IMG/VR virus record: IMGVR_UViG_3300046516_000964
DNA length: 64,000 nucleotides
From: a virus
Lineage: Duplodnaviria; Heunggongvirae; Uroviricota; Caudoviricetes
Reading direction: 5' to 3' (one strand)
Position numbers and translations under genes: made by a program. Shown here in pieces: positions 18,527 through 50,529 of the stretch (positions are counted from its first letter, which is position 1; each line of letters begins with the position of its first letter). The notes under the pieces are model-generated. The model was not told the origin of the DNA. It was given only the letters and a program-made list of their open reading frames with translations, and ran no database searches.

Positions 18527-18560
18527 CCTAGACACTCCTACCCGTTGGTTGGTATACTTA
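18527..18560 (+). promoter_or_regulatory. SigA-like promoter P1
   Basis: -35 TAGACA (18529-18534), 18-nt spacer, extended -10 tgGTATACT (18553-18558). It is one of four near-identical copies. Confidence 0.5.
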
Positions 18561-18641
18561 TAGTGTGGGTTGATGGGCATGGTGCCTCGGGAGATCCGGG
18601 GACGGGCCGTCGGGTGCTCGTTGAAACAAACCTCACCCACA

Positions 18642-18655
18642 CGTAACTTGTTACG
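18642..18655. repeat. Palindrome CGTAACTTGTTACG
   Basis: Lies in the P1 leader, 20 nt upstream of the ATG at 18676; followed by an RBS, GAGAGGAGGG. Confidence 0.6.
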
Positions 18656-18675
18656 GAATCTATGAGAGGAGGGCC

Positions 18676-18930
18676 ATGAGCGCAGCCGACCCGCATACCA
18701 CTACTTCGCTGAGCGCCCGTGGGCTGCTTCTGCGAATCCACCGCGACGATCAGGGTCAGGGCTTCATCGCTGCCGACGTAACAGGACTGCGATACGGCTT
18801 CGGAGACTCTCTACGCGAGGCGGTCAATGCGTGGGTCGATCAGTTGGACGACATTCTCGAGATGCCGGAGTCGGAGTTGGGCGAGCCGTTGCGGTCAGAA
18901 GTCGCGGCGTACAGAAGGGCGCTGGCGTGA
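18676..18930 (+). CDS. Hypothetical protein (HicB-like fold possible)
   Basis: 84 aa; strong RBS; first gene downstream of P1. Confidence 0.45.
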   Translation: MSAADPHTTTSLSARGLLLRIHRDDQGQGFIAADVTGLRYGFGDSLREAVNAWVDQLDDILEMPESELGEPLRSEVAAYRRALA

Positions 18931-19520
18931 GCGCAGCCGACCACGAGGCAGCTATCCGCGAGGCGCTCGGCACAGCTAACGACGATTGCGAGCCAATCGA
19001 CACGCCGTTGTACGTGGCCGCCCTCGCCGCTCTTGACGCCCTGGTGGGGCTGCTACAGCAGGCCGAGCAGGCGGCGGGGGCGGAGGCGCAGTTGGCGGAC
19101 GAGTCGCAGCGGTTCGCACGAGAGCAGCGGGCGCGGGCTGAGCGGGCCGAGCAGGACGCAGTGAAGTGGCAGGAGTACGGGCTAAAGATGAGCGACACGG
19201 CGGGCGTGCTCGAAGAAGCACTCCGCGAGATCGCCGAGCTTGATTACGACCGGCACGGGCTACGGCAAGTCGCCGATGCTGCGTACGAGATAGCGCGGGC
19301 GGCGCTTGCCGCTGCTGCTGCCCCGCCCGAGGCGGAAGGTCTTGGCGGCATCGCGCCGTTCCTACCGATGGTTGTCGATATGGCGGCCCCGCCCAAGGAG
19401 GTGAGCGAGCCGCCAGCCGAAGTCTCTGGACGCGACGACCAGCGCGTTGGTCAACCAGACAAAGTAAGCGGCGGCTCGCTGACTTCCCCGGCTGCTGCCC
19501 CGCCGAGCGAGACGCCATGA
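18927..19520 (+). CDS. Hypothetical Ala/Glu-rich protein
   Basis: GTG start in a GTGA overlap with the upstream stop; the listed ORF begins at 18831. Confidence 0.45.
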   Translation: MSAADHEAAIREALGTANDDCEPIDTPLYVAALAALDALVGLLQQAEQAAGAEAQLADESQRFAREQRARAERAEQDAVKWQEYGLKMSDTAGVLEEALREIAELDYDRHGLRQVADAAYEIARAALAAAAAPPEAEGLGGIAPFLPMVVDMAAPPKEVSEPPAEVSGRDDQRVGQPDKVSGGSLTSPAAAPPSETP

Positions 19521-19529
19521 AGTGTTGTT

Positions 19530-19543
19530 CGTAACACGTTACG
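19530..19543. repeat. Palindrome CGTAACACGTTACG
   Basis: 22 nt upstream of the ATG at 19566, before the RBS AGAGGAG. Confidence 0.6.
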
Positions 19544-19565
19544 TCTAGCGAGAGGAGATGTTCGA

Positions 19566-21162: not shown

Positions 21163-21859
21163 GAAACATCAGGAGGAGGAGCGGCGGAAAGCGTTGGAGC
21201 AGCGCGCTCGGCAGCTGGAGGAGTACAGGAAGAAGTTCATGGCGATGAAAATCCCGAGCCAGCCCTGGTCCTGGCAGGGCGGGTATTGGATATTGAGCGG
21301 GGGGGGTGGTGGTGGTGGTGGTGGTGGGCAGGGCGGTGGCGCGGCCTCGATCGTTAAGGCGTCTCTCGAGATGACGACCGCTCCGTTGCCGGAGCTCCCG
21401 TTGGTGTTCCAGACGGAGGTGGTGGTTGGGTGGAGGGCGTGGCACACCGGCTCGTTTTTGTCGAGGCACGGCGTGGAGACGACGGTGCTGATCCCGGTCG
21501 CTCCGGGCCACCGGATGCCGTTCTTCTACCCGCCGTTCCGTCGTTTCGAGGCGCTCTGCACGACCTCGCGTCATGAGGCACCGTTCCGGTCGTGCGCGTG
21601 CGGGGTGTGGGCGTTGAAGAACGAGGGTGATGTTTCCGCGGGAGCCGGGCACTATGGGCCGGAGGCGTGGGGCGAGGTGTCGTTGTGGGGACGCGTCCTG
21701 GAAACGAAGCTCGGTTACAGAGCGCAGTTCGCGTACCCGAAGTCTTTGCGGTGCGCGACCCCGGGGCTCGCTGAGGCGCTCAGTGCCACGTACGGGGTTC
21801 CGGCGGTTCACGACCGGAGCATCAACGAGATTTTCGATCGACCGGAGGGAGATGAATGA
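21143..21859 (+). CDS. Hypothetical Cys-motif protein (paralogue B) with a poly-Gly tract
   Basis: GTG at 21143 preceded by GGAGG (an alternative ATG is at 21239). RSCACGVWALKNEG...VSLWGRVLETKLGYRAQFAYP; (GGT)n encodes Gly10. The listed ORF starts at 20975 in Arg-rich sequence that is probably non-coding. Confidence 0.5.
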   Translation: MSQWGSRKHQEEERRKALEQRARQLEEYRKKFMAMKIPSQPWSWQGGYWILSGGGGGGGGGGQGGGAASIVKASLEMTTAPLPELPLVFQTEVVVGWRAWHTGSFLSRHGVETTVLIPVAPGHRMPFFYPPFRRFEALCTTSRHEAPFRSCACGVWALKNEGDVSAGAGHYGPEAWGEVSLWGRVLETKLGYRAQFAYPKSLRCATPGLAEALSATYGVPAVHDRSINEIFDRPEGDE

Positions 21860-22589: not shown

Positions 22590-22617
22590 CCCGAAATCCG
22601 CGACGGGCGTAAACACG

Positions 22618-22646
22618 GAGGGCCCCGAAAGGGGCCCTCTTTTTTG
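22618..22646 (+). terminator. Rho-independent terminator
   Basis: GAGGGCCCC-GAAA-GGGGCCCTC hairpin followed by TTTTTT. Confidence 0.7.
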
Positions 22647-22655
22647 TGCCCTAAA

Positions 22656-22907
22656 TCAGTACGGGTGCGCGCACTCCCCCAGCTCGTACGCGTGAAACCG
22701 CCATCTCGCGTAATCCTCCGCGCGTTTCACCGCAGCAGCCCGTAACGCGTTACGTTCCCGCTCCGTCGGCGGTCGCAGCCCTTTCCCGTCCATGTCCATC
22801 ATTCCGGGCGGCTCCAAAACATGGAGGCGAGCTCTTCTCAAGCACTCCTCCAACGGGGTCGGGTGCTCACGCATACGTCGACCCTCCGCACCCATTGCAC
22901 AGCACAC
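22656..22907 (-). CDS. Hypothetical protein
   Basis: 83-aa ORF convergent with the plus-strand block; contains an in-frame palindrome copy near 22741. Confidence 0.4.
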   Translation of the reverse strand: MCCAMGAEGRRMREHPTPLEECLRRARLHVLEPPGMMDMDGKGLRPPTERERNALRAAAVKRAEDYARWRFHAYELGECAHPY

Positions 22908-23235
22908 CAGGTCGGTGCAGATCAGCGTCCAAACACGCTCGATCGAACACCCTCGGAGGCACCGCCGGCCCGCCGACCAAAAGACCCTCCTGCAATCTCG
23001 GTAGAAGCTCCTCCGCGATCCGAGCGGCCATCACTCTCGACGAACGAGACGAAACAGCCTCGTCCACCGCGACCTTCAAAAATCCGGTCAAACTCATTCC
23101 TCTCGTATGGGCCGCGTCCCTCCATCTCGCGTTCTCGCTCTCAGACAAACGCACCGTCACCCTGTGTACAGCATTGTTCGTTTCCATGAGCAGCATTGTA
23201 CCACCAAGAGAGCAGCATTGTTCGTACGAGAACAT
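22867..23235 (-). CDS. Ribbon-helix-helix (CopG/Arc-like) DNA-binding protein
   Basis: HRVTVRLSESENARWRDAAHTRGMSLTGFLKVAVDEAV is an RHH signature. Start is probably the internal Met (MLLMETNN). Confidence 0.5.
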   Translation of the reverse strand: MFSYEQCCSLGGTMLLMETNNAVHRVTVRLSESENARWRDAAHTRGMSLTGFLKVAVDEAVSSRSSRVMAARIAEELLPRLQEGLLVGGPAVPPRVFDRACLDADLHRPGVLCNGCGGSTYA

Positions 23236-24069
23236 TTCCAGGGGGACGCAAAAATAGTAGGCGCGAGTCGCGCGAGCACGGGGCCACCTTGGCGCGTAAT
23301 CCGTGGGTAGGCGCGGGGTCGGATCCGGGGTGGAGGCGGCTCAGCGTGGCTCACGCGGGCACGCACGGGGCATCGGGTGGCAGGGTGCCGGGCGCGGGAA
23401 CGGGGGTTGGGTAGTCGCGCGGTGACCTAGACCTTTGGGGGGGGAATACCTAGACCTTTGGGGGGGGCGTAACGGGGTGACGGCAGGCATTCTGTGTAGG
23501 CGCAACGGTTTCCATAGGGGTTGCGTGGGTGGCCCGGGCGGGCGCGAGCTATAGCCCGGATCGGGTCGCATCACAATCGGCGATAGGCTCCGCAGCCTCG
23601 ACAACGGCTCGGGCAGGTCGTGCGCCGAACGGACAGTAGACGGCCATCCTGCGAGGGATAGCAAGAGTCTACCTACGGCCCTTCTCTGAGGGGTTATATG
23701 CCGAACCCTTGCGCGGTTGCCTATCGTGCGCTCCGAGGACCCTGAGTAGCGGCGTCCATGACTCCAGCTAGGTGCGTAACGGCGAAACGCTTGGGCATAA
23801 GGCTAGGTACTGCGCTTCGTCAAGCGGTCGGCTGCCCTCATTGGCTACCCGGTCATGTTGACTGAATCCCGGGCTGATAGTTGCCACCGGGATGGCGCAC
23901 CATACGCACACCCTCTCTCCGATCTCTCACAAGCTGACCTGGCTACCGGCCGGAGTCCACGGCAGATCGTTGAGCGAGAAGGACGTGACGCAGGTGTGGC
24001 GGCTGACCGCTGGCCGAAGCGCAGTACCTGAGGCTACTTCCTGATCGAGCAGCGCGGGAAGGAGACACC

Positions 24070-24204
24070 ATGTCTGCATCCCTGATCGCGCTCATAACGA
24101 TCGTGTCCGCCCTCGTGCTTGGCTTCGTCCCGGTCTACTGGGTCGCGAGAGCACAGAAGCGCGCAGCACGTATCAAGCTGATCCGGTCGTACACCGAGCG
24201 GTGA
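24070..24204 (+). CDS. Small membrane protein (44 aa)
   Basis: Not in the ORF track. RBS GGGAAGGAGAC; MSASLIALITIVSALVLGFVPVYWVARAQKRAARIKLIRSYTER. Confidence 0.45.
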   Translation: MSASLIALITIVSALVLGFVPVYWVARAQKRAARIKLIRSYTER

Positions 24205-24467
24205 TGGACAACGTCGAACGTCATCTACGTGACGCGGTGACCAGCGCCGACCGAGCCCTCGATCTCTACCGCCGCCAGGAATGGGAACGTGCTAACGCTC
24301 CACGCCTGCGACGGGAACGGATGGAAGCGAACTACCGCGAGCTCTACTGGCATCTCAACGAGCTCCAGGTCATCGAGTCCAGCCCTGAGATCGACCACCA
24401 GATCCGCCGCATCACCTGCAACATGCGGGTACTCGTGCACCGGCTCGGCTACACCCCATCCACCTAA
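24201..24467 (+). CDS. Hypothetical protein
   Basis: 88 aa; GTGATG overlap with the upstream stop. Confidence 0.5.
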   Translation: MMDNVERHLRDAVTSADRALDLYRRQEWERANAPRLRRERMEANYRELYWHLNELQVIESSPEIDHQIRRITCNMRVLVHRLGYTPST

Positions 24468-24703
24468 CCCTGCTACCTGCGCTGCTGGCTCAGGGAGTAG
24501 CCTCGAACCGGGAACGGGTTTGACTCTCCTACGTCACGAGTGCGACAATGTACTTATGACTAGACGAGAACAACCTAGTCCCATCTGGTGATGGGTTGCG
24601 TACCTAGCGTGGGTACCGCGTCCCTGGGTTTTCCACCAATCAGATCCCGACACCGTAACGGCGAAACGCCCGACACGGTAGAGGTCAGAGAAACGGAGAA
24701 CCC

Positions 24704-25732
24704 ATGAACGCTTCAACCACCGTAGTGGACCCGTTCGAAGCTCTCGGCATCGACACGTCCGAGATCGACGACGGAACCCAGGTGCTGAACCTGGAGGCGG
24801 CTGCCGAGGAGATCGGCATCCTCTCCAAGACCTTCAAGTCCCTCTCTGCCACGCTGAAGAAGGCTGGCAAGGAGAACAAGACGGTCGCGTACCACCTGCT
24901 CAAGTTGGCGATGAACGTCGTCAACGCTGCCGGATACCCCGTCATGTCGATGGAGACCGGCAAGGCATCGGAGTACGTCAAGCGGGTCAGCGCCGCGCTC
25001 TACGACACCTACTTCCCCATCCCGTCCGGCGAGAACGTGTCGGACGCGGAGAAGGCAGAGGCACGCAAGATGCGCAGCAACAGCCTCACCGCCGTCCGCC
25101 TCTGGTGGGGCGGTCGGAAGGGCGTCGGCGGGATGCGGGAATGCTTCGCCACCGCATACGTCATGGACAACATCGGGAACTACAAGCTTCACGCAGACGA
25201 CCTCCAGTCCCTGCAGAAGCCCGGTTTCCTGAAGTGGTCCGACCCCGACCCCGACTTCCCCGACCTGTTCTACCTGAAGACCGTGCCTCAGTTCCTCAAG
25301 GCGCCCATCGCGGAGCTCTACAAGCAGTCCGGCCTCGATGTGCCCGAGAAGTTCGGCGGTCCGAAGAAGGGCGGCAACGACAAGGACACCAAGTCGAAGA
25401 AGGTCACGGCGACCCAGTTCCAGACCACCGTCGCCGAAGGCATCGTCCGCTTCAACCCGCTCGTCATCGAGCAGTCCATCGAAGCGGCAGTCAAGGCCGG
25501 AGTTCGGCAGGTCCTGTCCGTCGGCGGCGAGATCGAGGGCCGCGAGGAGATCCGCGTGCTCAACGCCGCGATCATCAAGACCCTCGAGCTGTACCAGGCG
25601 CACCTCGACTCGAAGATCACGCCCGAGCAGCGCGAGCAGCTCGACGCGATCGTCGCGGTGCCCGACATCATGGCCGTCCTCAAGGACGAGGTCGAGCCCA
25701 AGGTCAAGACCACGGAGAAGGTCGCCGCCTAA
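24704..25732 (+). CDS. Hypothetical early protein (342 aa)
   Basis: Clean ORF with a strong RBS (GAAACGGAGAA); the 358-aa antisense ORF is spurious. Confidence 0.6.
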   Translation: MNASTTVVDPFEALGIDTSEIDDGTQVLNLEAAAEEIGILSKTFKSLSATLKKAGKENKTVAYHLLKLAMNVVNAAGYPVMSMETGKASEYVKRVSAALYDTYFPIPSGENVSDAEKAEARKMRSNSLTAVRLWWGGRKGVGGMRECFATAYVMDNIGNYKLHADDLQSLQKPGFLKWSDPDPDFPDLFYLKTVPQFLKAPIAELYKQSGLDVPEKFGGPKKGGNDKDTKSKKVTATQFQTTVAEGIVRFNPLVIEQSIEAAVKAGVRQVLSVGGEIEGREEIRVLNAAIIKTLELYQAHLDSKITPEQREQLDAIVAVPDIMAVLKDEVEPKVKTTEKVAA

Positions 25733-25828
25733 CCAGCCCGGCCGCTCCAACCCAGGGTCGCGGCCCGCGCTAGCTACGCAACTCGTCACCAGACGACACC
25801 GTAACGCCGAAACGGAGGTCTAACCCCG

Positions 25829-26044
25829 ATGCTGCAAGCACGCATCAAGGCGACCAACGACGAGACCAGCGAAACCCTCACCGTCGAGATCTACATCGGC
25901 GGGCGGAAAATCGCCGAACTCATCTCCGCGCACTGCTACGGAGACGACGACGTCACCGTCGATGCTCTCGCCTACGGTTTGGACGGGAAACCATTCGCCG
26001 AGGAGAACTTCCTCGCCCCGAAAGAACCACTCCCCGTCACCTAA
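25829..26044 (+). CDS. Hypothetical protein
   Basis: 71 aa; RBS AACGGAGG. Confidence 0.5.
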   Translation: MLQARIKATNDETSETLTVEIYIGGRKIAELISAHCYGDDDVTVDALAYGLDGKPFAEENFLAPKEPLPVT

Positions 26045-26086
26045 CCACCTAGCCCGCGCAGCATGCTGCGCGGGCTAACCCGTCGC

Positions 26087-26101
26087 CGTAACCGCGTTAC
26101 G
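26087..26101. repeat. Palindrome CGTAAC-CGC-GTTACG (3-nt spacer variant)
   Basis: 27 nt upstream of the GTG at 26129. Confidence 0.5.
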
Positions 26102-26128
26102 CTCCACCACTAGAAAAGGAGATCAGCC

Positions 26129-26563
26129 GTGATAGAACCGGCATCAGTCCGGCAAGCGGCCGAGAACCTCATCGTGCAGCACGGGCTCACAGGCTGGACG
26201 TTCGAGTGGGACGACACACTCACCACCGTCGGACGGTGCTTCCACAAGCGGAAGCAGATCACCGTCTCCCACCATTTCCTCGACAGCCCCGTGAAAGTCA
26301 TCGCGAACACGCTGCTCCACGAGGTGTCACACGCGATCGCCGGACCAAACCACGGTCACGACGACCACTGGTACCGGATCGCGCTCAAACTCGGCTGCAC
26401 CGGCACAACCTGCGCCGAAGGCGCCGTGCGCTCAGGTGACAAGCGTTACCTGCTCACCTGCCGCACCTGTAAGCGCACCTGGAAGCGTCACAAGCTCACC
26501 TACCGCTTCCCGCTCTGCCCGTACTGCAAGAAGATGCTCCACATCCACGACAACCACGCGTAA
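26129..26563 (+). CDS. SprT-like zinc metallopeptidase
   Basis: WTFEWDDTLTTVGRCFHKRKQITVSHHF...LLHEVSHAI (HExxH) plus a C-terminal CxxC...CxxC zinc ribbon. Confidence 0.7.
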   Translation: MIEPASVRQAAENLIVQHGLTGWTFEWDDTLTTVGRCFHKRKQITVSHHFLDSPVKVIANTLLHEVSHAIAGPNHGHDDHWYRIALKLGCTGTTCAEGAVRSGDKRYLLTCRTCKRTWKRHKLTYRFPLCPYCKKMLHIHDNHA

Positions 26564-26572
26564 CGAGTTACG
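26559..26572. repeat. Palindrome CGTAACGAGTTACG
   Basis: Contains the SprT TAA stop; 21 nt upstream of the GTG at 26594. Confidence 0.6.
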
Positions 26573-26593
26573 CGTTCTAGAAGGAGAAACACC

Positions 26594-26881
26594 GTGACCG
26601 GCGAACGCCGCTACCGGATCATCGTCATGACCCCGTGGTTTGCACCACCAGGGGACAACGTGATGGTGATCCGCACCGCAGACGAGACCCAGGTAGTCGC
26701 GACCAGCTGCAACGCGCTGTGCGACTACCTGAAAGCCAACTTCCATCCGCTCCACGAGTGGAAGTTCGAGTACCTGAGCCCCAGCCCGCAGATCGGCTGG
26801 CAGCCCATGACACGCTTCGCGTTCGAGAACGAGATGAAACGCGAACGCAGAGAGGACATCCTGAGCCGGCTCAGGCGCTGA
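26594..26881 (+). CDS. Hypothetical protein
   Basis: 95 aa; RBS GAAGGAG. Confidence 0.5.
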   Translation: MTGERRYRIIVMTPWFAPPGDNVMVIRTADETQVVATSCNALCDYLKANFHPLHEWKFEYLSPSPQIGWQPMTRFAFENEMKRERREDILSRLRR

Positions 26882-41737: not shown

Positions 41738-41770
41738 CTAGCGCCCCCGTCAAGGGGGCGCTTTTTTTAT
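41738..41770 (+). terminator. Rho-independent terminator
   Basis: AGCGCCCCC-GTCAA-GGGGGCGCT hairpin followed by TTTTTTTA. Confidence 0.7.
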
Positions 41771-41834
41771 GTCTTGACACACCCGCGCACCCGTACTAGC
41801 TTAAGCGCTCCGATCCTTAAGAGAGGGGAGCGAG

Positions 41835-42524: not shown

Positions 42525-42687
42525 CCACGTCTACGCGTGGGGGAACAACTCGGTGCGCGCGAAGCTGAAAGGGAGACGCTGCCGGGTGCTTGTACGAGGG
42601 AGAATGAACAGCATCCTGGTCGAGTTCGAGAATGGATACAAGACAGTGACCAGCAGATACGCGATCAGAGAGGATCGAAGTGCCTGA
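42496..42687 (+). CDS. Hypothetical protein
   Basis: 63 aa; overlaps the upstream gene by 29 nt. Confidence 0.4.
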   Translation: MTSRSLPPFDHVYAWGNNSVRAKLKGRRCRVLVRGRMNSILVEFENGYKTVTSRYAIREDRSA

Positions 42688-42746
42688 TGAGACACGCACC
42701 CTGCTCGTGGAGCAGGGACCTTGGACGACATGAACAAGGAGGGGTT

Positions 42747-43028
42747 GTGAGCCAGCAGGGGTTCGCTGAGGTTCTCGACTGGCTCGCGGAGGAGCGCGGC
42801 TACCAGACCACCAAGTTCAACTACGAGAAAGAGAAGGAACGCCCGGTTGAGTACTGGTTGCAGCAGTTCGCCTCGTATGAGCAGCGCCTACCGCTGTTCG
42901 GGTTGGACAACGCCTCCGGCATCCAGGCTGCGCTTAAGCTCGCGGCCACAGCGGTCGCTCTGTGCGAGCACCTGGCTGACCAGTACGAACTCCCGGCAGC
43001 GGGCTTGCCGTCCGGGTACTTCCAGTGA
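42747..43028 (+). CDS. Hypothetical protein
   Basis: GTG start after the RBS AAGGAGGGG (the listed ORF begins at 42537). Confidence 0.45.
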   Translation: MSQQGFAEVLDWLAEERGYQTTKFNYEKEKERPVEYWLQQFASYEQRLPLFGLDNASGIQAALKLAATAVALCEHLADQYELPAAGLPSGYFQ

Positions 43029-43321
43029 GCGGGCTCCGGGACACCACACTGGGGAACGTCGCCGACATTCCAATCCCGCTCACCCCGGAGCAGAGGGATG
43101 CGATCCGTCGATGCCGATTCTCGTACACCACCCAGTCGAGGGATCACGCGTGGCTGATCTTCGACGACCCGGAGATCATCAAGATCCTCGCGGGGGTGGT
43201 GCGACGCACTGAGACATACACACGTGACCACGTCACGAAGATCACCGAGCATGAAGCACTGATCGCGCACCCCGAAGCGGTCGCCCTGGTGTTGGAGATC
43301 ATGGCGGAGCGAGAGAAATGA
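43025..43321 (+). CDS. Hypothetical protein
   Basis: 98 aa; GTGA overlap with the upstream stop. Confidence 0.5.
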   Translation: MSGLRDTTLGNVADIPIPLTPEQRDAIRRCRFSYTTQSRDHAWLIFDDPEIIKILAGVVRRTETYTRDHVTKITEHEALIAHPEAVALVLEIMAEREK

Positions 43322-43503
43322 TGTGGCTGTGGGTGGTGCTCGCATTCGTGATCGGGGTGTGGTTCGGTGCTCGGATCTGGACGACCGTCGCGCGCAGCTT
43401 CCTCGGCAACAACCCTGATGGGGTTCTCGACAAGCTTGGATACGAGCAACTGAAGAAGCTCGAAGCGAGAGTCAGCGCAGAGATCGCGAAGCGACGAGCA
43501 TGA
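43318..43503 (+). CDS. Small membrane protein
   Basis: MMWLWVVLAFVIGVWFGARIW... TM helix; 4-nt overlap with the upstream gene. Confidence 0.45.
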   Translation: MMWLWVVLAFVIGVWFGARIWTTVARSFLGNNPDGVLDKLGYEQLKKLEARVSAEIAKRRA

Positions 43504-44315
43504 GACTCAGCGGCTTCCATGTCCCGGTCGAGCATCTGAGCGCGAGCTCACTCGCGATGCTGATCCAGTGCCCGGAGATGTACCGACTCAGGTACGTGAA
43601 GAAGATGCCGCAGACGTTCGGGCCCGACAGGTTCATCGGGATCGTCGACCACACCGTCCACGCTGAGAACTTCCAGCAGAAGATCAAGACGGACGAGGAC
43701 ATGGACAGCAACTACATGCTCGGGTTGTACCGCGCCAAATGGGACCTTGCGATCGACAAAGAGGGTGAACCCGAGTGGATGGCGGACGACCCGGACGCAC
43801 TCAAAGAGACCGGGCTGCAGATGATGTCTCTCTACCACGAGCGCGTATCCCCCACCATCCACCCGATCCGTGTGGAGGAGAGGTTCGAGGAGACCCTGCC
43901 CGGCCTGCCCGTTCCGATCATCGGCTACCCGGACGTGGAAACAAACGACAGGATCATCGAGCGGAAAACCTCGAAGAACCGTCTGACGAAACCGAAGTCA
44001 AGGTGGACACTGCAAGGAAGGATCTATTCGATGGTGCTCGACAAACCCGTTGAGTACCAGGTGATCACGAAGCAGAAAACACCGCAGGTGGTCACCGCTG
44101 AGGAGGCACCCGATCTAATGATCGCGAACGGGTACCGGGACGCCACCCTCGAAACACTGGGGCAGGCAGTCCACACCCTCAATGATCTGTGGGCTAGGTA
44201 CGGACCCGACGCAGCGTGGCCCACGAACGGTGTCCTGCACGACTGGCTGTGCGGCTACTGCTTCGCCGGCCCGAAGTACGGCAACCACTGCGTCGCATGG
44301 AAGGAGACAGCATGA
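43500..44315 (+). CDS. PD-(D/E)xK exonuclease (Cas4 / RecB-like)
   Basis: GYPDVETNDRIIERKTSK (D...E.K) plus a C-terminal Cys cluster, LCGYCFAGPKYGNHC. Confidence 0.6.
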   Translation: MRLSGFHVPVEHLSASSLAMLIQCPEMYRLRYVKKMPQTFGPDRFIGIVDHTVHAENFQQKIKTDEDMDSNYMLGLYRAKWDLAIDKEGEPEWMADDPDALKETGLQMMSLYHERVSPTIHPIRVEERFEETLPGLPVPIIGYPDVETNDRIIERKTSKNRLTKPKSRWTLQGRIYSMVLDKPVEYQVITKQKTPQVVTAEEAPDLMIANGYRDATLETLGQAVHTLNDLWARYGPDAAWPTNGVLHDWLCGYCFAGPKYGNHCVAWKETA

Positions 44316-44494
44316 ACATGGGCATGGCCGAAAACGAGATGAACGAGAAACTCGCGCGCCTCCACAATGAGTCGATTCATGACGACGGGTGCGCGACCAT
44401 GTATCCGGGAGGGAAGTGCAACTGCACACAGAAGGGTCTTCGTCGCGCCAACTTCACGTACCCGCACGTTCCTCTCAACCCAGCGTCGAAGTGA
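44312..44494 (+). CDS. Hypothetical protein
   Basis: ATGA overlap with the upstream stop; RBS GGAAGGAGAC. Confidence 0.4.
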   Translation: MNMGMAENEMNEKLARLHNESIHDDGCATMYPGGKCNCTQKGLRRANFTYPHVPLNPASK

Positions 44495-45135
44495 CCAAGC
44501 TTCCGACCGAGTCCTGGGATATGCAGGGGCTGGACGGACCTGCGTTCAAGGTGGGCCCGTACTGCAGTGTCCCCGGCTGCCACAAGATCTCTGAGCACGC
44601 CCACCACATCGTCCGTCGATCATTCCTTCCTGGTGACTTCCAGGACTGGGTGCGGATGCCCGACGGTGTCGAGGTGGGGAACCTCACCGGCATGTGCGTG
44701 AACCACCACCAGATGGTCACCGAGAACGTCGCGGCGATCACGTACGACAACGGGGTGTTCTACTGGTCGATGGGTGGTGCCGCGATCAACGTGCTCGCCT
44801 ACCAGCCCCCCAAGATGGGGGACACGAGCGAAGCCGACGTTCACACACGAGAACAGAAGCCCGTGTGCCCTGGTTGTGGGCGCGCCCTACCGAAACCGAA
44901 GATCGAAACCGCGACCGAGGAGAAGAAGAACCGTGCCACCTGGGCCATCTCAGTGCCGGCAGACGAGCGCGAGAACGGCTACGAGGTTCTCGACACCCTG
45001 CTCGAAGAGGTGCGTGACGAGCTCGACAAAGCAGGACTCCACTACGACAAAGGCAACAAGGTGCGGTACTACCCGCTCGCCACAGCCCTGGCTCTGTTCG
45101 TCCAGAACGCCGACCGAATCCTGAGCGATGAATAA
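44490..45135 (+). CDS. HNH endonuclease
   Basis: CSVPGCHKISEHAHHIVRRS...CVNHH...CPGCG: HNH core flanked by Cys pairs. Start is ambiguous (GTG 44490 or ATG 44521). Confidence 0.6.
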
Positions 45136-45319
45136 GACCTCACCGAACTGGGCTGACAAACCGGTAGGTCTCTGCCCGTCGTGCGGGTCGCAACTTGTCC
45201 GCGCCGGTCACGAGAACCGCGGGGAAGGCCCAACGGCTGGACGCTACTCGTGCATGAACCAGTCGTGCTCCGACCGTCGCTGGTTCAACCGCTCCGGTGA
45301 GCCGAGGTTCGGAGGGTGA
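45128..45319 (+). CDS. Small zinc-ribbon protein
   Basis: CPSCGSQ...CMNQSC. Confidence 0.4.
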   Translation: MNKTSPNWADKPVGLCPSCGSQLVRAGHENRGEGPTAGRYSCMNQSCSDRRWFNRSGEPRFGG

Positions 45320-45510
45320 AACTGATGAATAGGAGAGTCCCCAACGACGCTGTCGATGCGCTGACGATGGAGGCGTGGGTTTGGCCCCTGACTCGTTTTG
45401 AACTCATGCGACAAATCCTCTTCGGATACAAGCGCTGTGAGATCTGCTGCAACGGCGAACACACCACTGCTCAATGCTGGGTGCGCTACGTCACAGGACA
45501 ACGTCGTTGA
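45316..45510 (+). CDS. Hypothetical protein
   Basis: 64 aa; GTG or ATG start. Confidence 0.4.
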   Translation: MKLMNRRVPNDAVDALTMEAWVWPLTRFELMRQILFGYKRCEICCNGEHTTAQCWVRYVTGQRR

Positions 45511-46904
45511 AGCTCCTGCTGGGTGACTGCATCGAGAAGATGCGCGAGCTCCCAATGGAGTCTGTTGATGCTGTCGTGACCGACCCACCGTACGGGTTGG
45601 AGTTCATGGGCAAAGACTGGGACTCGTTCGGTGACATGCGCCAGCCGTTCAAGGACGATCTACAGGTATCGCCCGGCCCGATGGGACGGATGAAGGTGCG
45701 CCCATCAGGGACAGGCTCCTACGTGAAGGACCCTCGTCCTGCGATGCGCTCGTTTCAGTCGTGGTGCGAGACGTGGGGGACGGAGGCGTACCGATCGCTA
45801 AAGCCAGGCGGGTACCTGCTTTCGTTCGGAGGGACACGCACCTACCATCGTCTCACAGCAGGGTTGGAGGATGCCGGGTTTGAGATACGCGACTGTCTGA
45901 TGTGGCTGTACGGCTCCGGGTTCCCGAAGTCACTGAACCTCCCCGGTGGGTTGGGCACGGCACTGAAGCCAGCGTGGGAGCCGATCGTGATTGCACGCAA
46001 ACCACTGGACGGGACGGTGGAGCAGAACGTAACGCGTTACGGCACCGGAGCCATGAACATTGATGAGACCAGGGTCGGCGAGTCGAAACGAGCGCCCGCT
46101 TCCCCATCGCAGACGGACAGTACGCTCACCTACGGGGCGTACAAGACCGGGGAAGGAAGACTAGGCACCGGGTTCGACACAGACATTGGGCGCTGGCCCG
46201 CCAATCTGATCCTCTCCCACCACCCTGACTGTGTGTACGTGGGCACCTTCACGGGCCCGGGGAGAAAGATGAACCGGTATACGGACGGGCTGAAACCGTT
46301 CGGTGGCGGGAAGGGGCATCCGAGCACGCAGGAGACGACGCCTGACGAACCGTTCGAGTCTTGGGACTGCACCGACGACTGCCCGGTCAAGATCATGGAT
46401 CAACAGTCCGGTGACCGTCCGGCCGGCGGCAAGGTGAAAGGGACGGAGCCGTCACACACAGGCCAGGGAGGCATCTATGGCGTGTGGGAGCGTGTTGAGA
46501 ACAGCCCGTACAACGACACGGGTGGGGCGTCACGATTCTTCTACTGCGCCAAGACCACCAGGACGGAGCGCGGCGCCGGAGTTTCACGTGAAAACGATCA
46601 TCCCACGGTGAAGCCGATCGAGCTGATGCGCTACTTGGTCCGGCTAGTCACACCCGCCGACGGGGTTGTGCTCGACTGCTTCCTTGGCTCAGGAACCACC
46701 GCGGTCGCTGCTCTCCTGGAACACCGCACGTTCATCGGGATCGAACGGGAGCCCGACTACATGAAGATCGCGAAAGAGCGGGTGCAGTACTGGCAGCAGC
46801 ACGGTGAGGACGGCTGGCGCATCGCCGCCGAGAAGGAAGCATCGGAAGCACGGCAGGAGCGAGTCAAGTCGACAGGGCAGCTCAACCTGATGGACGCGCT
46901 GTGA
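45507..46904 (+). CDS. DNA N6-adenine / N4-cytosine methyltransferase (beta-class)
   Basis: DAVVTDPPYG (motif IV) near the N-terminus and VLDCFLGSGTT (motif I, FxGxG) near the C-terminus. TTGA overlap start (the listed ATG at 45474 is 37 nt inside the upstream gene). Confidence 0.75.
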   Translation: MKLLLGDCIEKMRELPMESVDAVVTDPPYGLEFMGKDWDSFGDMRQPFKDDLQVSPGPMGRMKVRPSGTGSYVKDPRPAMRSFQSWCETWGTEAYRSLKPGGYLLSFGGTRTYHRLTAGLEDAGFEIRDCLMWLYGSGFPKSLNLPGGLGTALKPAWEPIVIARKPLDGTVEQNVTRYGTGAMNIDETRVGESKRAPASPSQTDSTLTYGAYKTGEGRLGTGFDTDIGRWPANLILSHHPDCVYVGTFTGPGRKMNRYTDGLKPFGGGKGHPSTQETTPDEPFESWDCTDDCPVKIMDQQSGDRPAGGKVKGTEPSHTGQGGIYGVWERVENSPYNDTGGASRFFYCAKTTRTERGAGVSRENDHPTVKPIELMRYLVRLVTPADGVVLDCFLGSGTTAVAALLEHRTFIGIEREPDYMKIAKERVQYWQQHGEDGWRIAAEKEASEARQERVKSTGQLNLMDAL

Positions 46905-47266
46905 GGTTCACGATCCCAGGCGAACCAGTCGCCAAGGAACGCCCGCGCAGAGGACCTGCGGGGAACTGGTACACCCCACCCAAAACGAGAGCGTACGAAG
47001 AGCTGATTGGGTATGCAGCGAGGGCTGCCATGCACAGCAAGATCGAGGGTCCTGTTGTTCTCTCGCTCACGATCTACACCAACAACCACAAGCTCGACAC
47101 AGACAACGTCCTCAAGGCGATTTCGGATGGCCTCAACGGGCACGCCTACAACGATGACAGGCAGATCTGCGAGACGCATCTGTACCGGATCTGGTCGGAG
47201 AACCCCAGGGTTGTTGTTGAGATTGAAGAAACAGAAGCCGAAACAGAACATCCCACCGCCGCCTAA
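46901..47266 (+). CDS. rusA: RusA-like Holliday-junction resolvase
   Basis: PVAKERPR...WYTPPKTRAYEE...GPVVLSLTIY...DTDNVLKAISDGLNGHAYNDDRQI. Confidence 0.65.
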   Translation: MRFTIPGEPVAKERPRRGPAGNWYTPPKTRAYEELIGYAARAAMHSKIEGPVVLSLTIYTNNHKLDTDNVLKAISDGLNGHAYNDDRQICETHLYRIWSENPRVVVEIEETEAETEHPTAA

Positions 47267-47267
47267 G

Positions 47268-47414
47268 GTGCAACGAAGATGCGTCTACTGCGGGGGCGCG
47301 GCGAACGCAAACTCTCAGCTGCGCACTTGCGTTGGCCACTCCGATCTACCTAAGCTTGATCCCTACTACACGCGTTGGATGCGGACGAAGGAGATAGAAA
47401 CCCCCGAATGGTGA
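47268..47414 (+). CDS. Small zinc-finger protein (48 aa)
   Basis: GTG start 2 nt after the rusA stop; CVYCGG...C..H. Confidence 0.3.
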   Translation: MQRRCVYCGGAANANSQLRTCVGHSDLPKLDPYYTRWMRTKEIETPEW

Positions 47415-47423
47415 AGAGAGAAA

Positions 47424-47606
47424 ATGGCTAAGAGGAAGTGCGCGCGATGTGGTGCCGATGTTCCAATAGGAAAACACATTTACTCGAAGTACACTCAGAG
47501 CTATTACTGCTGGGATCTCGATGCTTGTGACAAGCGGGCGAAGAGGAGCCAGAAAGCCCTCCGCGATTTCGCGGACAACGTGAGAAAGGAACTCGAAAAT
47601 GAGTAG
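47424..47606 (+). CDS. Zinc-ribbon protein
   Basis: CARCGADVPIGKHIYSKYTQSYYCWDLDACDKR; RBS GAAGAGAGAAA. Confidence 0.45.
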   Translation: MAKRKCARCGADVPIGKHIYSKYTQSYYCWDLDACDKRAKRSQKALRDFADNVRKELENE

Positions 47607-47997
47607 CTTGAAGCTGTTCGAGTATGCCGTCATTCAGCAGCCCCTCAAGGAGAAGGGGAAGACGGTCGAGGAAGGAAAGGTTCTCGTGGGTGTGAACACC
47701 GTGCTCGCCGAGGACGAGACACAGGTGCAGCTGCTCGCGGCGCGCGAGGTGCCGGAGGACGCGATGAGCGACCTGTCCAGGCTCGAAGTGGTGGTGCGCC
47801 CTTTTGACCGTGAGCGCGTCCTAGGGATCCTCCAAGGCCAGTCGGGAGCCAGGGGGCCGAGCGGTCCGGTCGGTGCTGTGGGGGCCAGGGGAGCTGACTT
47901 CACCGCGTTCTCTATGGTGCCGTCCACGTCCTCTTCGACGTACACGAGCCTGTCGAATCTGAGCTCAGGCACGCCAGTCATCCAACTGAACACCTGA
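47599..47997 (+). CDS. Hypothetical protein with a short collagen-like snippet
   Basis: GARGPSGPVGAVGARGAD within a 132-aa ORF. Confidence 0.45.
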   Translation: MSSLKLFEYAVIQQPLKEKGKTVEEGKVLVGVNTVLAEDETQVQLLAAREVPEDAMSDLSRLEVVVRPFDRERVLGILQGQSGARGPSGPVGAVGARGADFTAFSMVPSTSSSTYTSLSNLSSGTPVIQLNT

Positions 47998-48188
47998 TGG
48001 CGAAGATCAAGGAGGGCCCGCCCTTCAACACCGGTTCGAAGCATGTTGCTCTTCACGCGAGCCTGCTCCCGAGAGACCAGGATCTGCTGGTCTGGATCAC
48101 GGAGTATTTGGGATGCAATCGTTCGGAGGCCGTGCGCACATCCATCCGTATGGCTGCTGGAATGCTTGCGAAAACCCAGCGCGACTAA
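47997..48188 (+). CDS. Hypothetical protein (possible RHH)
   Basis: 63 aa; ATGA overlap with the upstream stop. Confidence 0.4.
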   Translation: MAKIKEGPPFNTGSKHVALHASLLPRDQDLLVWITEYLGCNRSEAVRTSIRMAAGMLAKTQRD

Positions 48189-48246
48189 TGGACTTTGGTA
48201 GGTGCCATCTGTTAGAGTATAGGTAGGCGATTATAGAGGAGGTGAT

Positions 48247-48447
48247 TTGAACCCTCTAACGGATCGGCAACTACAGGTTGCTCGCCTCATATCGGAAGGT
48301 CTCTCGGACCTGGAGATAGCGGAACGATTGGGGATCATGGAACGCACCGTCAGGTCCCACGCTGACACGATCAAGGCAAAGCTTGGCGTGAGCAGGAAAC
48401 GAGAGATCCCCGCGGCGATGCGACGGTTCGGGCTCCTAGAGCCGTAA
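48247..48447 (+). CDS. LuxR/GerE-family HTH regulator
   Basis: LTDRQLQVARLISEGLSDLEIAERLGIMERTVRSHADTIKAKLGV; TTG start after the RBS GAGGAGGTG. Confidence 0.55.
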   Translation: MNPLTDRQLQVARLISEGLSDLEIAERLGIMERTVRSHADTIKAKLGVSRKREIPAAMRRFGLLEP

Positions 48448-48456
48448 CTAGTTACG
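48443..48456. repeat. Palindrome CGTAACTAGTTACG
   Basis: Contains the LuxR gene's TAA stop; 14 nt upstream of the TTG at 48471. Confidence 0.6.
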
Positions 48457-48470
48457 CAGAGAGGAGAGCA

Positions 48471-48833
48471 TTGACTTCGAATGCGACGAAGAACAAAGCC
48501 GAGCGAGGTATCTACACCTTAGTGGACCCTCTCGACTACATGCTGCTCGGTTTGCTCCCGAAAGAAGGTGAGCTTGTGTTCGGGCTCTACCCGCTCGGCG
48601 AGACAGTGACAGCGCTGGTGAAGAAGTTCACACCGGAGCAGCAGAAGCACCTGAAGACCTCCATGGTCTCCGGGCGGCTTGTCGCGATGCACGTCCAGGG
48701 TCTTGTTGCCAACTCCCCCGGTCGTGCAAGTGATCGGAAGATCTGGCAGCGGACAGCAGCTGGTGAGGAGGCCTTCAACAAATGGAAGGGAGCAAATGGT
48801 GGTAGCACAAGCGGAGGCACCGGTGGCAGCTGA
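48471..48833 (+). CDS. Hypothetical protein
   Basis: 120 aa; RBS GAGAGGAGAGCA. Confidence 0.45.
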   Translation: MTSNATKNKAERGIYTLVDPLDYMLLGLLPKEGELVFGLYPLGETVTALVKKFTPEQQKHLKTSMVSGRLVAMHVQGLVANSPGRASDRKIWQRTAAGEEAFNKWKGANGGSTSGGTGGS

Positions 48834-49716
48834 ACCGGACGAGACCGAAGTGGAGAGCATCCACGCGAACTCGAAGATCGAGGAGGTTCTCCTGAGCCGC
48901 CTGCAGATCGACTGGTCCTACCAGCGCGACATCTCTGAAGCGGTTGTGGATGAAATCGCGGCCGACTGGGATATCGTTGCTTCCGAGCTGATCCTGGTCT
49001 CGAACCGCGGTACGCGTCCAGCTGACGGAGAAATCAAGGGCGGTCTGTTCGTTGTGAACGGGCAGCACCGTTCGAAGGCAGCGCAGAAGAAAGGCATGAC
49101 GAAGATCTGGGCTCGCGTGATCGACTTGCGCAAGCACGAAGACCCGGGTTCCGTCGAGGCCGGCTTCCGTCTCAAGACGAACAAGCGTCTCGGTGACCGC
49201 CCGTTGGAGCGGTTCAAGGCGCAGCTGCGCTCCGGGAACGAGGAGTCCCTGGCGATCGTGAAGATCCTGAAGAAGCTCGAAACGGAGATCAACCAGGCGG
49301 CGCAGCCCGAGACCGGGATCAACTGCGTAGCGACGATCGAGCAGGTGTACCGCTACGACGACGGCCAGCTCCTTAGCGACACCGGGAAGCTGATCGTCGA
49401 CACGTTCAAGTACTTCGGCGGCAAGAACGCGCACTCCGCGTTCATCAAGGGTACCGCGTGGTTCATCGACAAGCACGCCGAGGAAGCGAACCGCGAACGG
49501 TTCATCGGTCGGCTGCAGTCGCTCGGTCAGGGAACGCTCGTCACTCGCGCCCGCGCCACAGGCCTGACGATGGGTGGCTCGCTGTGGCTGAACTACTACC
49601 GTGCGATGGTGGAGCTCTACAACGAGGGCCTGCGCGAACGGAACCGGCTGCACTGGAAGTACCGTGGCTCCGGCTCGCTCGAAAGCGCGAAGGCAGGCGC
49701 TGTTAACCGTTCGTGA
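48796..49716 (+). CDS. ParB-like nuclease domain protein
   Basis: ELILVSNRGTRPADGEIKGGLFVVNGQHRSKAAQKKGMTKIWARVIDL (ParB N-terminal domain motif). Start ATG at 48796 after GGAAGGGAGCAA (the listed ORF begins at 48679 inside the upstream gene). Confidence 0.55.
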   Translation: MVVAQAEAPVAAEPDETEVESIHANSKIEEVLLSRLQIDWSYQRDISEAVVDEIAADWDIVASELILVSNRGTRPADGEIKGGLFVVNGQHRSKAAQKKGMTKIWARVIDLRKHEDPGSVEAGFRLKTNKRLGDRPLERFKAQLRSGNEESLAIVKILKKLETEINQAAQPETGINCVATIEQVYRYDDGQLLSDTGKLIVDTFKYFGGKNAHSAFIKGTAWFIDKHAEEANRERFIGRLQSLGQGTLVTRARATGLTMGGSLWLNYYRAMVELYNEGLRERNRLHWKYRGSGSLESAKAGAVNRS

Positions 49717-49946
49717 GCAAGCAAGGGCATGACATAGGGAAGATCAAGAGCTCCCGACCTCCGAGCTTCCCTTCCAAGTCGAAGCAAGACAAGAGGAAAG
49801 CGAAGTCGGTCAGAACCGCGGTCGCCTACAACAGGGCCGAAGCACGATTTCACGAGATGGAGAACACGCGTCGGAAAGCTGCCCGCCCCGAACAGGGGGC
49901 GGGCAGTTCTGGCGCCACCCCATCACAAACCGATAACACTCCATAA
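49713..49946 (+). CDS. Hypothetical basic protein
   Basis: 77 aa; GTGA overlap with the upstream stop. Confidence 0.4.
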   Translation: MSKQGHDIGKIKSSRPPSFPSKSKQDKRKAKSVRTAVAYNRAEARFHEMENTRRKAARPEQGAGSSGATPSQTDNTP

Positions 49947-50008
49947 CGAAACATCCGCCAGCCTCCTTCGTGTCCACGCCGAGGAGGAACCACTAGGACC
50001 GGAGGCAT

Positions 50009-50500
50009 GTGAGGAGATTCGCTCTCATATGGTTTGTTCTGTACTGCATCGCCATCGCTGCCTCGTCAGCAACAGCCAATGCAGCGTCGACGATCACCAG
50101 GCACGATCGGGACGTGATCAGGTTCTTCCACCACCACCCTCAACTCGCGGCAACACCGGCGGGTGCCAAGGTGCTGGCGGAGCTTCTACCACGGGTAGTT
50201 CGTTCGTTGCAGGCAGCAGAGCAACCAGCATGGCCAGCCCACCACCAACTCTGGCTGTGCATCAACGACAACGAGTCCAAAGACAACTGGGCGGGAGTTA
50301 ACCCCAATGGTCATTACGGCGGATTGCAGATGCACGAGTACTGGGGGTACGGGACCAGCCGTTATGCGAGTGATGATTCGCAGCTCGTTCAGGAGCAGGC
50401 AGCCGAGAGGGCGTACGCCGCCTCGGGGTATTCGAGCTCGTTTCTGTACGATCAATGGTTCGATTACGACTACGCGAGTTACTGCCTGAAGTACGCCTAG
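50009..50500 (+). CDS. Secreted transglycosylase-like (Rpf / SLT-like) protein
   Basis: Signal peptide (FALIWFVLYCIAIASSATANA) plus CINDNESKDNWAGVNPNGHYGGLQM...W...C. Confidence 0.5.
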   Translation: MRRFALIWFVLYCIAIAASSATANAASTITRHDRDVIRFFHHHPQLAATPAGAKVLAELLPRVVRSLQAAEQPAWPAHHQLWLCINDNESKDNWAGVNPNGHYGGLQMHEYWGYGTSRYASDDSQLVQEQAAERAYAASGYSSSFLYDQWFDYDYASYCLKYA

Positions 50501-50529
50501 ACATACATACCTATAGGTTGGTATACTAT
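50496..50529 (+). promoter_or_regulatory. SigA-like promoter P4
   Basis: -35 TAGACA (50498-50503; the TAG is the stop codon of the upstream gene), 18-nt spacer, -10 tgGTATACT (50522-50527). Confidence 0.5.

Follow-up and report, generated by a model that had tools for sequence, protein, structure and literature searches.

The window analysed here is a stretch of 64,000 nucleotides from the IMG/VR virus record IMGVR_UViG_3300046516_000964 (Caudoviricetes), in which an earlier note had pointed out four similar promoters, here called P1 to P4. The minus strand encodes the large terminase TerL (17047-18507), a Mu-type portal protein (8376-9803), a NUDIX/phosphatase/protease fusion and collagen-like fibre proteins, and a plus-strand arm of 36 kb (18.6-54.7 kb) carries the non-structural genes. 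The latter encode a ribbon-helix-helix protein, Ku, NADAR, SLOG, a PD-(D/E)XK nuclease, an N6/N4 methylase, RusA and DUF6551, proteins with Band 7, Macro and SprT domains, and a tRNA-Lys. The same genome was found as a contig of 78,353 bp in an independent assembly, and according to its coordinates the 14 kb beyond the window lie within the minus-strand structural arm. P1 to P4 each head one of four rightward operons in the non-structural arm of this roughly 78-kb genome, which belongs to an uncultured soil phage, probably an actinophage.

The four sites were recovered exactly where they had been located (18527, 27547, 34739 and 50496). The pattern CTAGnnA-n4-TACC-n8-GGTATACT has exactly four occurrences in the window (18528, 27548, 34740, 50497), all on the plus strand, and the same four plus-strand sites are the only matches to CTAGNNANNNNTACCNNNNNGNNGGTATACT with up to three mismatches, compared to 0.01 expected. 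The octamer GGTATACT is confined to P1 to P4 on both strands of the window (0.22 expected), and even the loose promoter pattern T[AT]G-N21-TATANT selects only these four sites (0.18 expected). A generic sigma-70 scan independently found P1, P2 and P4 with 9-10 of 12 consensus positions, and almost nothing else in those regions. All four lie in intergenic gaps, co-oriented with the genes downstream, and the gene map confirmed that each faces a plus-strand gene block. The -10 hexamer TATACT matches the TATAAT type at five of six positions in all four copies, including the A at position 2 and the T at position 6. The match of the -35 hexamer to TTGACA is graded, namely 5/6 for TAGACA (P1, P4), 4/6 for TAGCCA (P2) and 3/6 for TAGCTA (P3), which adds up to 10/12 for P1 and P4, 9/12 for P2 and 8/12 for P3, so that P3 alone is marginal. 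The sequence of P3 is identical in three other assemblies. An extended -10, gGGTATACT, had been ascribed to all four promoters; TATACT is indeed common to them, but a true TGn is present only in P1 and P4, and P2 and P3 have GGg instead. The distance to the first start codon had been given as 110-140 nt; it is 118-158 nt when measured from the -10, and the predicted leaders are 111-151 nt long. As claimed, every leader contains a copy of the palindrome CGTAACnnGTTACG, 84-118 nt past the -10, and the TAG of the P4 -35 (50498-50500) doubles as the stop codon of the upstream transglycosylase gene, an open reading frame (ORF; 50009-50500) that encodes an Rpf-type transglycosylase-like domain (PF06737) and an N-terminal hydrophobic segment.

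The P1 unit, divergent from TerL, extends from 18676 to about 22580 and is closed by a strong terminator (22617-22650). The P2 unit (27715 to about 33177) is divergent from a small minus-strand gene, and the P3 unit (34916 to about 41330) is divergent from ParB-like and TerS-like genes and is followed by another strong terminator (41740-41772). The P4 unit (50685-54700), the promoter of which begins at the transglycosylase stop codon, has a hairpin at 54758 as its end. The coordinates of all features are summarized in Table 1. The four first genes were considered as paralogs, which was rejected because they are mutually unrelated; only the product of the first gene behind P3 is recognisable as a DNA-binding protein. 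A terminator-like call in the P3 leader (34832-34847) was rejected as an attenuator, because it is weak (5 bp) and not conserved.

Table 1. Positions of promoter elements, leader features, first genes, terminators and palindromes in the window (SD, Shine-Dalgarno sequence; aa, amino acids).
Feature	Position	Strand	Remarks
P1	18527-18569	+	-35 TAGACA 18529-18534, 18-nt spacer, TGg + -10 TATACT 18553-18558, tATAGTG
P1, predicted transcription start	about G18565	+	
P2	27547-27589	+	-35 TAGCCA 27549-27554, 18-nt spacer, -10 TATACT 27573-27578, tGTAGTA
P2, predicted transcription start	about A27585	+	
P3	34739-34780	+	-35 TAGCTA 34741-34746, 18-nt spacer, -10 TATACT 34765-34770, GTAGTTA
P3, predicted transcription start	about A34777	+	
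P4	50496-50538	+	-35 TAGACA 50498-50503, 18-nt spacer, TGg + -10 TATACT 50522-50527, ATAGGTG
P4, predicted transcription start	about G50534	+	
Leader RNA motif, P1 copy	18568-18638	+	hairpin loop GAGAU
Leader RNA motif, P3 copy	34808-34879	+	hairpin loop GAGAA
Leader RNA motif in relatives	L001 5713-5785; L257 9867-9936; L245 9278-9340; L264 about 500-585		L264 copy on minus strand
Palindrome, P1 leader	18642-18655		CGTAACTTGTTACG; just ahead of SD GAGGAGG and ATG 18676
Palindrome, P2 leader	27679-27692		CGTAACCAGTTACG; ahead of SD and ATG 27715
Palindrome, P3 leader	34882-34895		CGTAACTCGTTACG; ahead of SD GAAGGAG and ATG 34916
Palindrome, P4 leader	50645-50658		CGTAACTGGTTACG; lengthened by flanking GC pairs; ahead of SD and ATG 50685
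Palindrome, example sites	8367, 19530, 26559, 29307, 31703, 35763, 39248, 40806, 48443, 52855		
First gene, P1 operon	18676-18930	+	84 aa, no family match; SD GAGGAGG, ATG 18676
First gene, P2 operon	27715-28038	+	107 aa, no family match
First gene, P3 operon	34916-35164	+	82 aa, ribbon-helix-helix (CopG/RepB-regulator-like); PF10723 9e-5, PF01402 3.5e-4
First gene, P4 operon	50685-51017	+	110 aa, no family match
Intrinsic terminator, P1 unit end	22617-22650	+	10-bp GC stem + TTTTTTGTG
Intrinsic terminator, P3 unit end	41740-41772	+	9-bp stem + TTTTTTTATG
Terminator-like hairpin, P4 unit end	54758-54793	+	convergent with minus-strand genes
Candidate leftward late promoter	18505-18523	-	TGc + TACGCT (18520-18515), 7 nt ahead of GTG 18507

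Position, geometry and conservation of the promoters were established by comparative genomics. Relatives were reached via TerL, Ku and a protein of 317 aa, and dozens of TerL relatives with 65-87% identity are present in public assemblies. Promoters at the position of P1 were found in L001 (TTGAAA-taccccccttatagcgta-TATACT-aatagtgagggtgg), L257 (TTGTGT-ttcccccctagaaacagc-TATACT-atagttatgggtgg) and L264 (TTGATA-tacccaccccctcactga-TATAGT-atatgtatgggtgg), and at the position of P4 in L244 at 8778 (TTGATA-tacccaccccctacttga-TATAGT-ataagtatgggtgg) and L255 at 1412 (TAGACA-tacccccctgatggaggg-TATAAT-ataggtagatgggtg), in all five cases with an 18-nt spacer. P3 has an ortholog in L245 at 9157 (TGGCGG-18 nt-TGgTATGAT-gttaatagatcgggggg), and probable orthologs of P2 are present in L245 at 3559 (TTGCGG-17 nt-TATGAT-attaataggtgggtgg) and L257 at 2311 (TAGCGA-18 nt-TATACT-ataagtgtgggtg). 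The common architecture of the clade is T(T/A/G)Gnnn, a spacer of 17-18 nt with a C-run in its 5'-half, TATAnT, (A/G)TAG and a G-run. While the flanks diverge, both hexamers and the distance between them stay constant. The orthologous sites mostly have the canonical TTG, and position 2 of the -35 varies between T, A and G. Therefore, by this comparison the TAG of the window differs by one base from a promoter cassette found throughout the clade and is not a new motif, and the peculiarity of the window genome is merely the A at this position in all four copies. The -35 had been described as unusual, which could not be upheld: TAGACA shares five of six positions with TTGACA, and the orthologous hexamers are TTGAAA, TTGATA, TTGTGT, TTGCGG, TGGCGG, TAGACA and TAGCGA. 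At the P2-equivalent site of L257 (2254-2311) two overlapping divergent promoter-like elements were observed, the -10s of which (TATAGT/TATACT) are the same bases on opposite strands.

An exact-pattern scan of IMG/VR with the promoter pattern gave no match, and scans with the P1-type core and with palindrome plus Shine-Dalgarno (SD) patterns gave almost exclusively chance matches, the exceptions, L077 and contigs of sample 3300047160, being the sole real relatives. With the ParB-like and the 317-aa protein as queries, IMG/VR revealed no new context, and a metagenome scan with TerL mostly found relatives of 45-50% identity without the divergent layout; in L166, the upstream gene is co-directional. 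Neither the palindrome nor the cassette is present in Kovu and Laroye, the Arthrobacter phages that are the nearest cultured relatives by portal.

The spacer identity is 56-67% among the paralogs of the window and 33-56% between orthologs. Of the 12 nucleotides upstream of the -35, 10 are the same in P3 and P4, although this stretch is coding at P4 and non-coding at P3. The two sites of L245 have their own common flavour (GCGGTTCCCCC...TATGAT.TTAATAG), and the P1 site of L264 is almost identical to the P4 site of L244. Because copies within a genome are more alike than orthologs, the cassette behaves like a single family, the members of which are homogenised or moved from one position to another. 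Homogenisation would account for the near-identity beyond the hexamers, so that a special recognition code is not needed. Phage promoter copies can thus evolve in concert, and their near-identity alone is no evidence for an exotic recognition mechanism.

It is likely that P1 to P4 are copies of one cassette that is read by the host RNA polymerase with its primary sigma factor (sigma-70/SigA-type). Promoters of this type have -35 and -10 hexamers 17-18 nt apart, a TGn in the case of an extended -10, and a purine start about 7 nt downstream, with 16-19 nt between the hexamers and a 5' end 6-9 nt past the -10 as the accepted range. P1 to P4 resemble them in the spacing, the TATAAT-type -10 and the co-oriented intergenic position, and P1 and P4 also in the TGn, but they differ by the A at -35 position 2 throughout and by additional conserved blocks in the spacer and downstream. 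We infer recognition by the host polymerase, the start sites and an early timing. Judged by the geometry, sigma region 4 would bind T(A)Gnnn and region 2 TATACT across the 18-nt spacer, and P1 and P4 would add the TGn of an extended -10. Transcription would start about 7 nt past the -10, at a purine preceded by T, and the transcript would consist of a G-rich 5' end, a leader of 111-151 nt that is predicted to fold, the palindrome, the SD sequence and the first gene. The units are predicted to terminate at the intrinsic terminators at 22.6, 41.7 and 54.8 kb, and the four copies may be kept alike by recombination or by copy-and-paste within the genome. Taken together, the finding is real, and P1 to P4 look like ordinary host-type promoters that are kept uniform, and not like exotic ones; the palindrome and the CCTAGAC repeat are features separate from them.

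Several observations weigh against this interpretation. TTG is the best conserved part of the -35 in an E. coli-type consensus, and under this consensus TAG should weaken the promoters, yet it is present in all four. P3 reaches just 8/12 and has no TGn. A plain sigma-70 model assigns no role to three conserved features, namely the C-run/TACCC of the spacer, the G-run, and the (A/G)TAG that follows the -10; a second protein or a function of the RNA could lie behind them. The cassette is also not the sole route of transcription for the arm, because it is missing from two plus-strand units (24.07-26.9 kb and 41.8-50.5 kb). The first of them (24070-26881) is preceded by a complex region of 0.9 kb, and the second (41835-50500) has its own candidate promoter, TTGACA-17-TAGCTT (41773-41801), directly past the terminator at 41740; its perfect -35, which speaks in favour of the host-type reading, indicates that canonical -35 elements are in use in this genome. 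In addition, the assignment to an actinobacterial host is founded on protein matches of 32-43% and one domain. The spacer motif of the candidate promoter at 41773, GCGCACCCGTAC, has a copy in reverse orientation beside the terminator at 22617 (22650-22671).

The alternative that survives best, although it is unlikely, is that the promoters are factor-dependent, with the -10 read by the host polymerase and a phage-encoded activator or sigma appropriator bound to the weakened -35 (cCTAGnnA) together with either TACCC or (A/G)TAG; in this case the four operons would be switched on jointly and at a defined time. In the middle promoters of T4, a MotA box takes the place of the -35. A comparable arrangement would explain why all four copies are conserved past the hexamers, why they have the non-consensus A in common, and why the spacer C-run and the ATAG plus G-run recur in relatives, and the phage encodes at least two small ribbon-helix-helix proteins, one of them in the first gene behind P3. 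However, the orthologs mostly have the canonical TTG, and one has a perfect TATAAT. The register of the TACCC/C-run shifts, from 4 nt after the -35 in the window to immediately after it in L001, L244, L255 and L264, and the TACC-N8-GGTA dyad is absent from relatives. If the operons are early, the phage protein would not yet be made. The earlier note had proposed host SigA together with a phage factor; recognition of the host primary-sigma type is very probable, but no sigma or anti-sigma factor, RNA polymerase, MotA/AsiA-like or other activator was detected among about 57 proteins scanned against Pfam and 30 query proteins scanned against PHROGs. Neither a box in fixed register replacing the -35 nor a phage activator, as in the T4 MotA system, was thus found, although one of the unknown small proteins could be an unrelated factor. 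Two further candidates were rejected, the TACC-N8-GGTA dyad as an operator, since dyad and register are not conserved in relatives, and a second -10-like hexamer as a sigma-dependent pause signal of the lambda pR' type, since a downstream TAnnnT is found only in some copies.

It is quite improbable that the repeats of roughly 45 bp primarily serve to bind a protein of the phage, be it as operator, as roadblock or as a signal for recombination or replication, and are promoter-like only by resemblance. The internal symmetry of P4 (ACCTATAGGT), the palindromic GTATAC in the -10 and the inverted repeat TACC-N8-GGTA in all four copies of the window are consistent with such sites, but the copies have a strict common orientation with the downstream genes and a constant 18-nt spacing, they occupy the only plausible promoter positions for these operons, and relatives conserve the hexamers and not the symmetric parts. 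Phage RNA polymerases typically use highly conserved promoters of 20-40 bp, and in the T7 type the conservation runs without a break over about 23 bp (-17 to +6). That a phage-encoded RNA polymerase recognises P1 to P4 is hardly credible, because, in spite of the long conserved stretch, the TATAGG/TATAGT adjoining the predicted start in P1 and P4 and the resemblance of ACTATAGG in P4 to the T7 core from -6 to +2, the conservation is bipartite (-35/-10) and not continuous, P2, P3 and most orthologs lack the T7-like core, no family of RNA polymerases was detected in the window, no plus-strand ORF in the window exceeds 476 aa (a T7-type enzyme needs a longer one), and the remaining 14 kb of the genome fall within the structural arm.

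The palindrome CGTAACnnGTTACG, with 6-2-6 organisation, has 29 copies in the window compared to 0.04 expected. About 20 of them are directly upstream of an SD sequence and a start codon, on both strands, in the four leaders and also within operons, and the others are at operon 3' ends or within genes. GTAAC-N2/3-GTTAC also ranks first among the over-represented palindromes of seven related genomes, which is not the case in the Arthrobacter phages. Judged by its placement, the palindrome is tied to gene starts and not to promoters. The proposal that a palindrome-binding regulator times the promoters is contradicted by this distribution within operons, and the distance of 84-118 nt downstream of the -10 is incompatible with a classical operator. 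One copy (46028-46041) lies within the N6/N4 methylase gene and is found at the same position in L244 (3943) and L245 (19053); the window copy has GGAG and ATG behind it, a hint at an internal start or a regulatory site. The tetranucleotide CTAG is scarce in the whole window (72 observed versus 115 expected), and nevertheless each of the four -35 regions contains it, as do several palindrome centres (AACTAGTT) and stretches that separate palindromes from SD sequences.

Start-associated repeats have been described for several groups of actinophages. Cluster O mycobacteriophages contain 34 copies of a 17-bp 7-3-7 dyad, TGTTCGGnnnCCGAACA, with invariant arms, a variable centre and an unknown function, and many copies are just upstream of gene starts (PMC4351075). 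The organisation is like that of the window palindrome, while sequence and size differ (7-3-7 TGTTCGGnnnCCGAACA versus 6-2-6 CGTAACnnGTTACG). Microbacterium phages of Cluster EG have GATCAACCnnGGTTGATC, an inverted repeat of 18 bp around a 2-bp centre, which lies 14-22 bp upstream of start codons in short intergenic gaps; it has 8-10 copies per genome, is kept across divergent genomes, and its function is also unknown (PMC7302621). It shares the organisation of the window palindrome, being a short inverted repeat with a 2-bp centre near start codons that is present cluster-wide, but it has another sequence, fewer copies (8-10 versus 29) and no described linked promoter family. In Cluster K, the repeat called SAS is an asymmetric 13-bp sequence that overlaps the ribosome binding site, has a single orientation and is tied to translation starts of non-structural genes, and the ESAS is an inverted repeat just upstream of the ribosome binding site (PMC3203893). 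The window palindrome resembles both in its link to translation starts and the ESAS in its position, but it is a perfect palindrome upstream of a separate, ordinary SD sequence and thus not an SAS. It has the properties of a start-associated inverted repeat of the Cluster O/EG type, for which many copies, a variable centre and a usual distance of 10-25 nt to the start codon are characteristic.

The leaders behind P1 and P3 contain a common RNA motif. From 5' to 3', a G-rich strand is followed by AUGGUG, a hairpin of 6 bp with the loop GAGAN, the trinucleotide GAC, another hairpin, the sequence GAAACA and finally a C-rich strand; the latter pairs with the G-rich strand, which results in three helices, and the palindrome comes next. 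The motif was found solely behind promoters of the P1 and P3 type (in the window, L001, L257, L264 and L245), and a regular expression for its core retrieved only these sites in the 2.38 Mb of DNA searched. For covariation, five sequences were aligned, fitted to the structure by hand, with only unpaired parts trimmed. In this alignment 98.8% of the cells pair, and 9 of the 17 pairs are changed on both sides. None of 500 shuffles reached any of the observed measures, and slid controls dropped to 39-55% paired. When folded individually, four of the five sequences recovered the architecture, with modest energy z-scores between +0.4 and -2.9. A covariance model found just the five seed sites in 631 kb, and no further leader copies. 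Comparison of the leaders with Rfam gave no meaningful match. The leaders of P2 and P4 are different from the motif, and they are likewise GC-rich and predicted to be folded. The P1/P3 motif is a candidate cis-regulatory RNA that is not in Rfam. The P3 leader also contains CUCCUUCC (34850-34858), which is complementary to the SD sequence GAAGGAG (34903-34910) and is kept in L245 (9315-9322); it could sequester the SD sequence of the first gene around the palindrome hairpin.

The boxB hairpins of lambda nutL and nutR and the put RNAs of HK022 are situated downstream of early promoters. The P1/P3 motif has a resemblance, and only a resemblance, to them in its hairpin with a GC stem and a GNRA-like GAGAN pentaloop, 30-60 nt into the transcripts; four relatives also have this hairpin, with compensatory changes in the stem. 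In contrast to them, it is a three-helix structure, and it is missing from P2 and P4. Neither a boxA nor an arginine-rich N-like protein was identified, nor were internal terminators that would be read through; the terminators are at operon ends.

TerL has a GTG start at 18507 without an SD sequence, and the conservation of the protein with L001 starts at that codon. At the place of the candidate leftward -10, three relatives have TGgTACATT (L001), TACGAT (L257) and TACAAT (L264), in each case 6 nt ahead of the GTG, and in relatives with a co-directional upstream gene the TerL ATG abuts the upstream stop codon or is a few nt away from it. This pattern suggests that TerL is translated from a leaderless late transcript that starts at a -10-only promoter. 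The candidate -10 (18515-18520) is only 8 bp from the -35 of P1, and therefore a polymerase at P1 would exclude the TerL promoter. It is tempting to speculate, albeit with rather low expectation that all three parts hold jointly, that cassette and leaders form a coordinated control module, which would be novel for this uncultured actinophage clade. In this module, all early-type promoters of a genome could be held to a single flavour, which in this phage is the A at -35 position 2; the leader RNA of P1 and P3 could bind a phage or host factor for antitermination, translational control or stabilisation; and occupancy of P1 could exclude late transcription of TerL, until shut-off of P1 flips the early-to-late switch.

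The closest described analogue of the whole arrangement is Cluster O, with Corndog, Catdawg and others, for which 8-9 strongly predicted SigA-like promoters, divergent promoters predicted to be leaderless, and more than 30 dyad repeats have been reported (PMC4351075). The similarities include a genome of about 70-78 kb, Ku-like and ParB-like proteins, several promoters that divide the non-structural arm into operons, divergent leaderless promoters as a parallel to P1/TerL, and glycosyl- and methyltransferase genes in the virion module, which were seen in relatives of the window phage. On the other hand, there is no detectable DNA similarity and only remote protein similarity, Cluster O phages are not among the best TerL and portal matches, and the four promoters of the window are near-copies of one another with long structured leaders. 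The analysis provides a transcription map for a widespread family of uncultured soil phages with genomes of about 75-78 kb, comprising four homogenised host-type promoters, terminators, a likely leaderless late promoter and a start-associated palindrome. Most worth following up are the covarying leader RNA of P1 and P3, which as a small and testable motif absent from Rfam is the most useful new lead, and the back-to-back promoters of P1 and TerL.

A further connection had been drawn to a tandem of CCTAGAC, the core of the -35, in a region around 23.4 kb that was thought to be non-coding. The two copies exist (23426, 23449), but the 7-mer is present at chance frequency in the window (six observed versus 4.9 expected), and the tandem belongs to a separate 23-nt direct repeat, ACCTAGACCTTTGGGGGGGG (23423-23468), with no -10 after either copy. 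CCTAGAC was therefore rejected as a functional core shared by the -35 and this repeat. The region is also not wholly non-coding, because it contains a minus-strand ORF for a ribbon-helix-helix-like protein (22867-23187, METNNAVHRVTVRLSESENARW...). Three AGCAGCATTGT(T/A)C repeats (23170-23227) extend over the start and the upstream region of this ORF and look like operators. The independent 78,353-bp assembly ends at about 23468 of the window, which is the end of the second ACCTAGACCTTTGGGGGGGG copy, and therefore this position may be a physical genome terminus. A pair of 26-nt inverted repeats (23807-23832 and 24002-24027), about 170 nt apart, is found just upstream of the gene at 24070, which suggests a large folded RNA or DNA structure between 23.3 and 24.06 kb; a comparison of 23.2-24.1 kb with Rfam gave no meaningful match.

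No relatives at the DNA level were found among GenBank phages, and TerL has less than 30% identity to that of any cultured phage. The nearest cultured relatives of the portal protein are from Arthrobacter phages (40-43% identity), and Ku matches only mycobacteriophages, with about 32% identity to Cluster J-type phages. Together with the Rpf-type PF06737 domain and the apparently leaderless TerL, these matches make an actinobacterial host plausible. For the larger unknown proteins, PHROGs revealed no functions. Some TerL homologues from the protein search contain intein/homing-endonuclease-like insertions (about 820 aa, PF14528), and L257 to L261 have several glycosyltransferase and methyltransferase genes in the virion module, between TerL and portal. 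The collagen-like genes with Gly-X-Y repeats (612-2402 and 58482-59717, minus strand), which probably encode tail or head fibres, have a 9-nt periodicity and dominate the direct-repeat output. A tRNA-Lys(ttt) of 97 nt called by ARAGORN at 21419-21515 lies in a coding region, has no Rfam support and is probably a false positive, whereas the tRNA-Lys at 37207-37279 is a solid call.

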